From Octopus vulgaris (lineage: Eukaryota): DNA of 64,000 nt. Shown here piece after piece: positions 26,499-29,400 of the stretch. The stretch is taken from the NCBI GenBank assembly GCA_951406725.2, contig OX597833.1:62372001-62436000 (forward strand). The letters run 5' to 3'. The notes beneath the pieces are model-generated. The model saw nothing but the letters and a program-made list of their open reading frames with translations. It did no database searches and was not told where the DNA came from. The translations under genes were made by a program, and so were the position numbers. Every line of letters starts with the position of its first letter. Positions within the stretch are counted from its first letter, which is position 1.

Positions 26499-29400
26499 AA
26501 CACACACACACACATGTGAATTTTAACCAAAAAAGGTGAAACAAACCAGAATAAACTGGTAGAAGAGCAGTGGGGGTTAGATTCTGGTTGTAGAAAATCT
26601 CCCTAAATAAACTCCATCTGACCCATGCAAGCATGGAAAAGTAGATGTTAAAACGATGATGATATATGTACATATAAATGATAGGGAGGTGGTTTATTAG
26701 TTGAAGGTCGGTGATTTGGTTGTCAGTTTTAGCAGATTAAGTAACCATGTAGAGGCCTCTCTCATTAGCTTCTAAATGGTACTTTAATTCATTAATTATT
26801 ATTGATAGCTGCAGAAAACAACCATCAACCTAATCACATAAAAAGTTCCCTTCTTTTCTACACCATCTCTATAAACAAAATCTCTGAATATATTTAATAC
26901 TACTACTACTGCTACTACTACTACTACTACTGCTGCTGCTACCACCACCACTACTACTTACTTACTTGTTCTTGGGGTGACATTCGCCCTGGGCGGGTTG
27001 AGTCGGCTTCTTCTACTCACGGAAGAAGTTTCGTGGGAATATGTAGATTTTCACAAGTGGTCTCCAACAATCCCGCATGTGGAGACATCCTGTTTGCCGC
27101 AGATTGTCCGCAGACGCAGGGACAGAACGACCGAGGAGCCGCCGGATGCCGAAGCAGACACTCCAAGGATTTTCACCAGAGCCCCGTCTGCCGGGTTGTG
27201 GCCCTTAATACCACTCGGTGTCAGACCAATCCGCCTTGGGTGGGCTTACCAAGAACCGAAGTTCCCGACGGCATAGCTCTGACACTACCTGTTGCCAGCG
27301 TCCCCACCATGGTGAGGAGGGGATGGACTTTGGGGACGCAAACAGACACTCTGAGGATTTTCACCAGAGCCCCGTCTGCCGGGTTGTGGCCCTTAATACC
27401 ACTCGGTGTCAGACCAATCCGCCTTGGGTGGGCTTACCAAGAACCGAAGTTCCCGACGGCATAGCTCTGACGCTACCCGTTGCCAGCGTCCCCACCACGG
27501 TGAGGGGGGGATGGACTTCGGGGACGCAAACAGACACTCTGAGGATTTTCACCAGAGCCCCGTCTGCCGGGTTGTGGCCTTAATACCACTCGGTGTCAGA
27601 CCAATCCGCCTTGGGTGGCCCTACCAGGAACCTAAGTTCCCAACGGCATAGCTCTGACGCTACCCGTTGCCAGCGTCCCCACCACGGTGAGGAGGGGATG
27701 GACTTTGGGGACGCAAACAGACACTCTGAGGATTTTCACCAGAGCCCCGTCTGCCGGGTTGTGGCCTTAATACCACTCGGTGTCAGACCAATCCGCCTTG
27801 GGTGGCCCTACCAGGAACCTAAGTTCCCAACGGCATAGCTCTGACACTACCCGTTGCCAGCGTCCCCACCACGGTGAGGAGGGGATGGACTTTGGGGACG
27901 CAAACAGACACTCTGAGGATTTTCACCAGAGCCCTGTCTGCCGGGTTGTGGCCCTAATACCACTCGGTGTCAGACCAATCCGCCTTGGGTGGCCCTACCA
28001 AGAACCGAAGTTCCCGACGGCATAGCTCTGACGCTACCCGTTGCCAGCGTCCCCACCACGGTGAGGGGGGGATGGACTTCGGGGATGCACCACCCCTACT
28101 ACTGCTACTGCTACTGGATTTCTATGTAAACCACCAAATTTTTTTTTTTACCTTTATTTCCAGTGATGCTGAATTGATCGTCAAACACCTGTCTCACCTC
28201 TCTAAAGTGAAAAGGTTCCAGATGGCCATAATGTTTCTCAGTTCTTCAGAAAAACAAGGTAATTATTTCTCCAGACATTTACCAATATTTCAACTTTGCC
28301 CATTTTGGCATCCAACCCATTAATCATCCTCGAACACATTGCTTCTTAAGTGGTGGCCACCACATATAGCAGTGTAAAGTTATTGGATATTCCAACTTAC
28401 ATATATAATTACTTACTTTTACTTTTTACTTGTTTCAGTCATTTGACTGCGGCCATGCTGGAGCACCGCCTTTAGTCGAGCAAATCGACCCCGGGACTTA
28501 TTCTATCGGTCTCTTTTGCCGAACCACTAAGTGACAGGGACATAAACACACCAGCATCGGTTATTAAGTGTTGTTGGGGGAACAAACACACACACACAAA
28601 CACACACATACATATATATATACGACAGGCTTCTTTCAGTTTCCGTCTACCAAATCCACTCAAAAGGCATTGGTCGGCCCGGGGCTATAGCAGAAGACAC
28701 TTGCCCAAGATGCCACGCAGTGGGACTGAACCCGGAACCATGTGGTTGGTTAGCAAGCTACTTACCACACAGCCACTCCTGCACCTACATAATGCAAACA
28801 TACAAATGAGAAATTTGTTTTATTTAGCTTAATTTAGTATATTATGGTTGCCTAACGAAATACCACGTACCTACAAGTCGTTAGTAAAAATTTAACTATG
28901 CAACCTCAGTGTTTCCAGGTTCAATCCCTCTGCACAGCATCTTGAGTAAGTGTCTTCTGTAGTCACAAGTTGACTGAAACCATGGGGGGTGAAATTGGGT
29001 TTGGGGGGGAAATCTGGAATCCTATTAGATTGGCTGTATTCTTTTATTCTTTTACTTGTTTCTGTCATTTGACTGTGGCCATGCTGGAGCACCGCCTTTA
29101 GTTGAACAAATCGACCCCGGGACTTATTCTTTGTAAGCCTAGTACTTATTCTATCGGTCTCTTTTGCCAAACCATTAAGTTACGGGGACGTAAACACACC
29201 AGCATTGGTTGTCAAGTAATGGTGGGGGGACAAACACACACAAACATATACCTATACCTATACATATATACGACAGGCTTCTTTCAGTTTCCATCTACCA
29301 AATCCACTCACAAGGCTTTGGTCGGCCCAAGGCTATACTAGAAGACATTTGCCCAAGGTGCCACACAGTGGGACTGAACCCGGAACCATGTGGTTGGTAA

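Follow-up and report, generated by a model that had tools for sequence, protein, structure and literature searches.

R2 SIDEs are established examples of internally deleted LINEs with an active HDV-like ribozyme (PMC3414825, PMC3774820, PMC6765202). In the accessible accounts, these elements and the trypanosome NARTc/RIME elements join a ribozyme-bearing LINE 5′ end to a LINE 3′ end, encode no protein, and are mobilized in trans (PMC3414825, PMC4035085, PMC3774820). SIDER2 elements of trypanosomatids, also short and non-autonomous, carry tandem HDV-like signatures at the 5′ end; the two signatures are an old, fixed family trait (PMC4035085). For RTE elements, 5′ ribozymes have been predicted, and Bov-A and Bov-A2 consist of RTE 5′ and 3′ ends brought together by internal deletion, with Bov-A2 a dimer (PMC5786205). 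Animal non-LTR retrozymes are tandem units, each with a self-cleaving motif (PMC7229834, PMC7761336). They are arrays of type I hammerheads, up to 62-mers, that are linked to Penelope-like elements and for which circles have been demonstrated (PMC7229834, PMC7761336, 10.64898/2026.07.22.740005). Our literature search, mostly of open-access text, found no tandem HDV heads in an RTE element, no mention of the family described here, and no description of a genomic circular RNA from tandem HDV ribozymes.

We analyzed a 64,000-nt stretch of the Octopus vulgaris genome (the window) in which an initial annotation had proposed a retroposed array of HDV-like ribozymes. On the minus strand, five head units begin at 28088, 27901, 27714, 27527, and 27339 and measure 187, 187, 187, 188, and 188 nt, respectively (unit 1, 27902-28088; unit 2, 27715-27901; unit 3, 27528-27714; unit 4, 27340-27527; unit 5, 27152-27339). 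TRF reported a period of 187, 5.0 copies, and 96% matches for the array, bearing out the five proposed units. Unit 5 is the head of the underlying monomer and is followed by a 193-nt tail. About 190 nt of this region had been described as unique, but it is family sequence: 134 nt from the rest of an RTE LINE 5′ end (27018-27151), reaching to an internal-deletion junction near 27018, and the final ~58 nt of that LINE with a short tandem tail (26959-27017). The proposed 15-bp TSD is also present, adjoining the first head nucleotide, G1. Its 5′ copy (28089-28103) and 3′ copy (26944-26958) differ by one mismatch, and its limits are soft because it lies within a (TAC)n microsatellite (26898-26958). 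Units 2 and 3 diverge by only 0.5%, and the array is a mosaic in which units 1 and 4 are alike in the 5′ half and units 4 and 5 in the middle.

The element, non-coding and ~380 nt long, derives by internal deletion from a 3.4-kb APE+RT (RTE-type) LINE in the same genome. We searched 2.8 Gb in 227 contigs with unit 5 plus the tail and found a dispersed family (1,540 candidates, 40 scored). Among 29 other loci that we fetched, most of them with a TSD, 28 had one head before the tail and one had an extra partial head. A pattern spanning the head-to-tail junction gave 567 genome matches, and thus at least 567 copies, with none for the control. When we sampled 60 copies from the matches listed for chromosomes C1-C5, 31 began at positions 1-3, supporting the proposal that G1 of the HDV-like head is the element's 5′ end, and none had a second 187-nt head.

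The initial annotation had also suggested a non-autonomous RTE derivative and a search for its autonomous partner. That search identified two LINE copies, L101 and L102. L101 is full-length, and its first 321 nt and last 58 nt are common to the short copies; LINE and short copies alike are TSD-flanked. The APE+RT frame of L101 is broken (RVT_1, E 1e-34), and an APE domain was detected in L102. The closest database proteins are single ~1030-aa APE+RT frames, the named ones from flatworms and a snail. This single-frame architecture, together with C-terminal motifs that we take to be RTE-type, suggests the RTE-type label. Copies vary in the position of the middle deletion, with many intermediate deletions, and the longer ones retain the end of the RT frame. 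TSDs, the tandem tail, and 5′ truncations all occur in the family. In L101, L102, and a further copy, L105, the LINE frame extends upstream of the first obvious ATG and is still open where it enters the end of the head (unit ~172-321).

The head fits the HDV-like ribozyme fold and is likely, by prediction, to be self-cutting. The nested double-pseudoknot order P1-P2-P3-L3-P1.1-P4-J4/2 is present, and the same order is found across five families. P1 pairs positions 1-8 with 35-42 (8 bp), P3 has two pairs and closes a 7-nt L3, and P1.1 pairs 26-27 with 43-44. These parts lie where the initial annotation had located them, and the UUCG loop that it noted in three units is found in three of the five. 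A published descriptor of HDV-like ribozymes includes U20, C24, and G25 in L3 and C-R-R-A in J4/2 (PMC6326823). Units 1-4 contain these three L3 nucleotides and a C-R-R-A box with C149; the box of the window unit, C-A-G-A, satisfies the descriptor. In unit 3, for example, L3 (27684-27690) holds the equivalents of U20, C21, C24, and G25. When we ran the descriptor search that had been proposed for the array, units 2-4 matched, compared to 2 of 5,000 dinucleotide shuffles of unit 3.

The head departs from the canonical fold at two sites. Families A-D have two of the three P3 pairs, with a U-U or C-U mismatch at the third position, and P1.1 is C-A/U-G instead of C-C/G-G. A P3 mismatch has been reported in an R2 ribozyme (PMC3774820), and a related head on a metagenome contig, L195, carries the canonical forms of both P3 and P1.1. 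The units also differ among themselves. Unit 1, whose HDV-like fold spans 28088-27926, has broken P1 (3-40) and top P2 (21-154) pairs, and its ribozyme is likely impaired. In unit 5, the G25 equivalent is A and one P4 pair is broken, making this ribozyme likely inactive. Units 2-4 have intact cores, as judged by sequence alone.

To place the 3′ part of the fold, we used related heads. A protein search for sister LINEs yielded three families, B, C, and D, in the same genome, with about 35-77% identity; L195 shows 58%. Common to all five families are the L3 box, P1.1, a G-C-N-R-A box, and the downstream P2 strand. Family B (L168, L169, and L197-L226) has heads that start with C, not G, and A in place of C24. 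Family C comprises L178-L180. Family D (L192 and L193) has a compact P4 and a partial P1, and gave no HDV match in the Rfam search. L195 (nucleotides 32-108; contig RCNI01045407.1) is a compact HDV-like ribozyme that precedes an RTE-type APE frame; it can be aligned with each of the two Rfam HDV models from end to end, and its G-C-U-A-A falls on the catalytic box. The first 36 nt of this contig are an inverted copy of sequence further downstream, and the L195 P1 overlaps this inverted duplication.

These homologues move the predicted catalytic base. The initial annotation had taken CCAA (unit 101-104; 27611-27614 in unit 3) for J4/2 and unit 105-114 for the 3′ strand of P2. Both fall inside the large P4 insertion and are missing from three of nine aligned homologous heads; family D and L195, which have a short P4, lack them. 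The homologues instead place J4/2 at unit 148-152 and the P2 3′ strand at 154-163. In unit 3, these are the G-C-A-G-A at 27563-27567 and the strand at 27552-27561, whose partner is 27694-27701. The stem closing P4 (49-53/143-147) is perfect, covaries in family B, was recovered by an unconstrained fold as well, and ends just before the 148-152 box. Because the homologue boxes align at 148-152 behind this stem, we predict a 163-nt ribozyme (unit 1-163) and, from four sister RTE families, C149 as the likely catalytic C (27753 in unit 2, 27566 in unit 3, and 27378 in unit 4). CCAA is probably not catalytic, so the C-to-U change proposed there would probably test the wrong base.

Several other measures bear on the fold. 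Folding energy does not separate the two models (-49.7 versus -50.4 kcal/mol). The nine-row alignment contains compensatory changes at 8-35 and 53-143, with no clear excess over shuffles (328/500 for both-side pair changes and 24/500 for paired cells); parsing by hand adds changes in P1, P1.1, and P2 across families. The L3, P1.1 position, J1/4, and J4/2 boxes align with those of Rfam models RF02682 (HDV-F-prausnitzii) and RF00094 (HDV_ribozyme), and the F. prausnitzii model aligns over P1, P3, L3, and P1.1. All these matches are sub-threshold (15.6-18.9 bits against gathering cut-offs of 44 and 50; 15.8 bits against 44 for the window unit) and served as alignment guides only. At the gathering threshold, a tRNA is the only Rfam match in the 64-kb window, and hammerhead models gave no match at E≤10. 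We also considered and rejected a second ribozyme at position 188: Rfam gave none, and positions 185-188 are predicted to be mostly paired.

Elsewhere in the genome, a loose HDV-core pattern found the window family and one other repeat and no further ribozyme family, and 20 regions upstream of distant LINEs (26-35% identity) held no convincing HDV box. A more distant LINE (e.g., C10:8408631 and C4:100982800) has many copies with uninterrupted ~1095-aa frames and is likely a young family; we checked the upstream sequence of one such copy and found no HDV box.

The window array is not a one-off, since other multimers exist. A head-head junction in which position 187 is followed by position 1 (187|1) occurs at 23 loci, identified with two patterns (28 and 25 matches) plus one further locus. 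One pattern match, L049, was left out because it is a target duplication resembling the junction. With five units the window array is the largest; two loci have four units, three have three, and the rest have two. Against 567 head-tail junctions, multimers make up about 4%. When a gap of 0-30 nt was allowed, 24 of 25 matches had identical spacing and one was 4 nt shorter. T185 is found in all 29 junctions compared to 21 of 43 monomers, and a T-run precedes G1 in every junction. The junction looks inherited, as its spacing is constant and T185 is present throughout, yet the tails behind it represent at least eight deletion types. Unlike R2 SIDEs and NARTc/RIME, the window family is putatively of the RTE clade, has dispersed targets, carries a predicted 163-nt ribozyme with a branched P4 of ~100 nt, and includes a minority of copies with 2-5 heads. 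Unlike in SIDER2, the extra heads occur at only ~4% of loci, on many tails, and are clustered on small chromosomes. Bov-A2, as described, doubles the whole unit, whereas the window family repeats only the first 187 nt.

Other repeats in the family contain no whole ribozyme. A second junction, 305|68, repeats a 238-nt piece at nine loci with different tails, alone or with 187|1 (the two are combined at three loci). At L281 (nucleotides 119-518; C2:189320000-189321100), the first 25 nt of the element are repeated 16 times in tandem from G1 ahead of a normal copy. We also found a 57-nt duplication anchored at G1 that, like the 25-nt repeat, is too short for a ribozyme. Pieces of the family are duplicated internally in tandem once each at L107, L053, and L160 (~137, 207, and 204 nt), and a head-head fragment lies within a larger, 632-nt tandem duplication at L118/L119 (C27 near 32552000).

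One locus has a different structure. In L150 (C12, near 87942350), an inverted head runs from 175 to 187 and then from 1 to 180, and is joined to a forward tail. Its junction carries C185 and is independent of the T185 junctions. L150 looks like a product of twin priming in which the template jumped, or went round in a circle, close to that site. The structure indicates that junction formation during reverse transcription was real at least once.

Such an event might be general. Reverse transcriptase that has copied to G1 could, at each insertion, land on position 187 of a linear family RNA, either the same one or another, with the U-run at 187 helping the landing and reshuffling only later. 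Template jumps of this kind would explain one precise junction on at least eight tails, the T-run before G1 in all junctions, L150, and the G1-anchored duplications of other lengths, and jumps at the 5′ end have been documented in vivo for R2 (PMC3414825). However, positions 185-187 are predicted to be mostly paired, leaving no open linker, and repeated jumps predict genome-wide dispersal.

The multimers are not dispersed. Of the 23 loci with 187|1, 20 are on C23-C34, compared to 15 of 74 background copies (P 1e-8), and none is on C1-C13, compared to 34 of 74 (P 1e-5); the baseline comes from a single 74-copy subfamily, and we picked the chromosome cut-offs after viewing the data. The 305|68 loci (L247-L256) show a matching distribution, lying on C23, C24, C27, C30, and C34, all within C23-C34. 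A junction variant, T2, was found at 7 of 8 loci on C30, 3 of 12 other multimer loci, and 2 of 36 monomers. As recurrent template jumps leave unexplained the absence from C1-C13, T2 on C30, and the distribution of 305|68, we consider them an unlikely source of the arrays.

Changes shared among units were also local. Private non-CpG changes are shared by 20 of 49 unit pairs within a locus versus 43 of 1,226 pairs between loci, and some of those shared within a locus break the ribozyme. Two neighboring C30 loci have three rare changes in common. Together, the clustering, the 305|68 pattern, the private shared changes, the mosaic array, and the ribozyme-free repeats fit DNA-level junction transfer and changes in copy number. 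We therefore favor, with a probability of roughly 0.6, a reading in which the window element is an internally deleted RTE copy whose five heads accumulated through DNA recombination once a one-headed copy was in place.

From the fold, the homologues, and published RTE and R2 biology, the ribozyme would cut at G1 to free RNA from read-through transcripts, and the freed RNA would be inserted by the LINE protein through target-primed reverse transcription. A jump of reverse transcriptase from G1 to position 187, or a nested insertion, may have made 187|1 once or a few times. Since an active inner ribozyme would trim multimer RNA back to the monomer, the junction would have spread not as RNA but at the DNA level, through ectopic recombination or gene conversion into copies already inserted on small chromosomes. 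Unequal exchange could later have raised the number of units in the window to five. Several observations argue against multiplication by DNA recombination. Shared rare changes away from the junction show no same-chromosome excess (6 of 39 versus 30 of 151 pairs), and extended tracts of local transfer are therefore not the rule. In 8 of 19 loci, no private change is common to the units. Finally, the junction of L150 was apparently made by reverse transcription.

The initial annotation had proposed instead an HDV-type retrozyme: multimer transcripts would self-cleave into 187-nt monomers, a host ligase would circularize them, and the RTE protein would copy the circles. Judging from the intact cores of units 2-4, two cuts would yield exact monomers. 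T185 and T2 travel together at junctions, as from a circular template, and L150 goes once round the unit. The unit size also falls in the animal retrozyme range of ~150-300 bp (PMC7761336). However, monomers dominate the family; multimers account for ~4% of loci, have at most five units, and always retain the LINE tail. Inner cores are not preserved (intact in 7 of 29, compared to 9 of 27 monomer cores). The changes shared within loci are private to them and not common to donor and progeny loci, the arrays cluster by chromosome, and the ribozyme-free junctions behave alike. The retrozyme proposal is thus not upheld for the family, and we regard it as improbable for the array. Whereas animal retrozymes carry type I hammerheads and their circles have been demonstrated, the window element is predicted to be HDV-type, is RTE-derived and tailed, and has at most five units. 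Its units have no type I hammerhead, arrays are not the main form, and one of the retrozyme properties that we could check is found, by sequence, in units 2-4. By these comparisons, the element appears to work like a SIDE or SIDER2.

A related idea is a retrozyme in the making, in which any tailed family RNA could serve as the first template: the RTE reverse transcriptase would leave it for a 187-nt circle released by multi-headed copies, roll through the junction, and so seed arrays. We rate this scenario, too, as a long shot. Among the sequencing runs listed as matching, none was RNA. Four assembled contig sets, two of them guessed to be RNA, listed no 187-to-1 joint, which weighs neither for nor against circles, as rare forms are dropped during assembly. 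Were the locus transcribed, 187-nt monomers could be freed from units 2 and 3; under multiplication at the DNA level, any such RNA would be a by-product.

Alternatively, a two-headed master with a slow inner ribozyme could have moved as RNA, with template switching exchanging the tails and later changes in the number of units. A single origin of the junction and TSDs that flank whole multimers accord with this model, and in SIDER2 two tandem HDV signatures are fixed across the family (PMC4035085). It is difficult to reconcile with at least eight tails, the strong clustering, and the lack of diagnostic changes across loci besides T185 and T2. We consider a mobile two-headed master highly improbable.

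The nearest exons that we could recognize, at 41007-41111 and 60617-60736 on the plus strand, match IPT/TIG and Sec5 (EXOC2), and so no gene was identified as transcribed on the minus strand that carries the element. On the minus strand, 33918-33999 matches a tRNA gene whose variable arm is long (Rfam, 58.7 bits). On the plus strand, 24386-24976 is a 197-codon open stretch in which a 24-nt repeat encodes Q-P-K-rich units; it has no Pfam match.

As ribozyme-headed deletion derivatives of LINEs are already known, the element itself is unsurprising. Of value is the set of related RTE heads in one genome, with a compact HDV fold at one end and a branched-P4 fold of 163 nt at the other, together with a corrected prediction of the catalytic base. 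The independent 187|1 and 305|68 junctions, found at many loci and on many tails only on small chromosomes, offer a traceable marker of exchange between dispersed repeats. Units 2-4, which look intact, provide a natural test of whether tandem HDV ribozymes give rise to circles, as hammerhead retrozymes do. If a retrozyme in the making proved true, it would represent a genomic circular RNA produced by HDV ribozymes in tandem.
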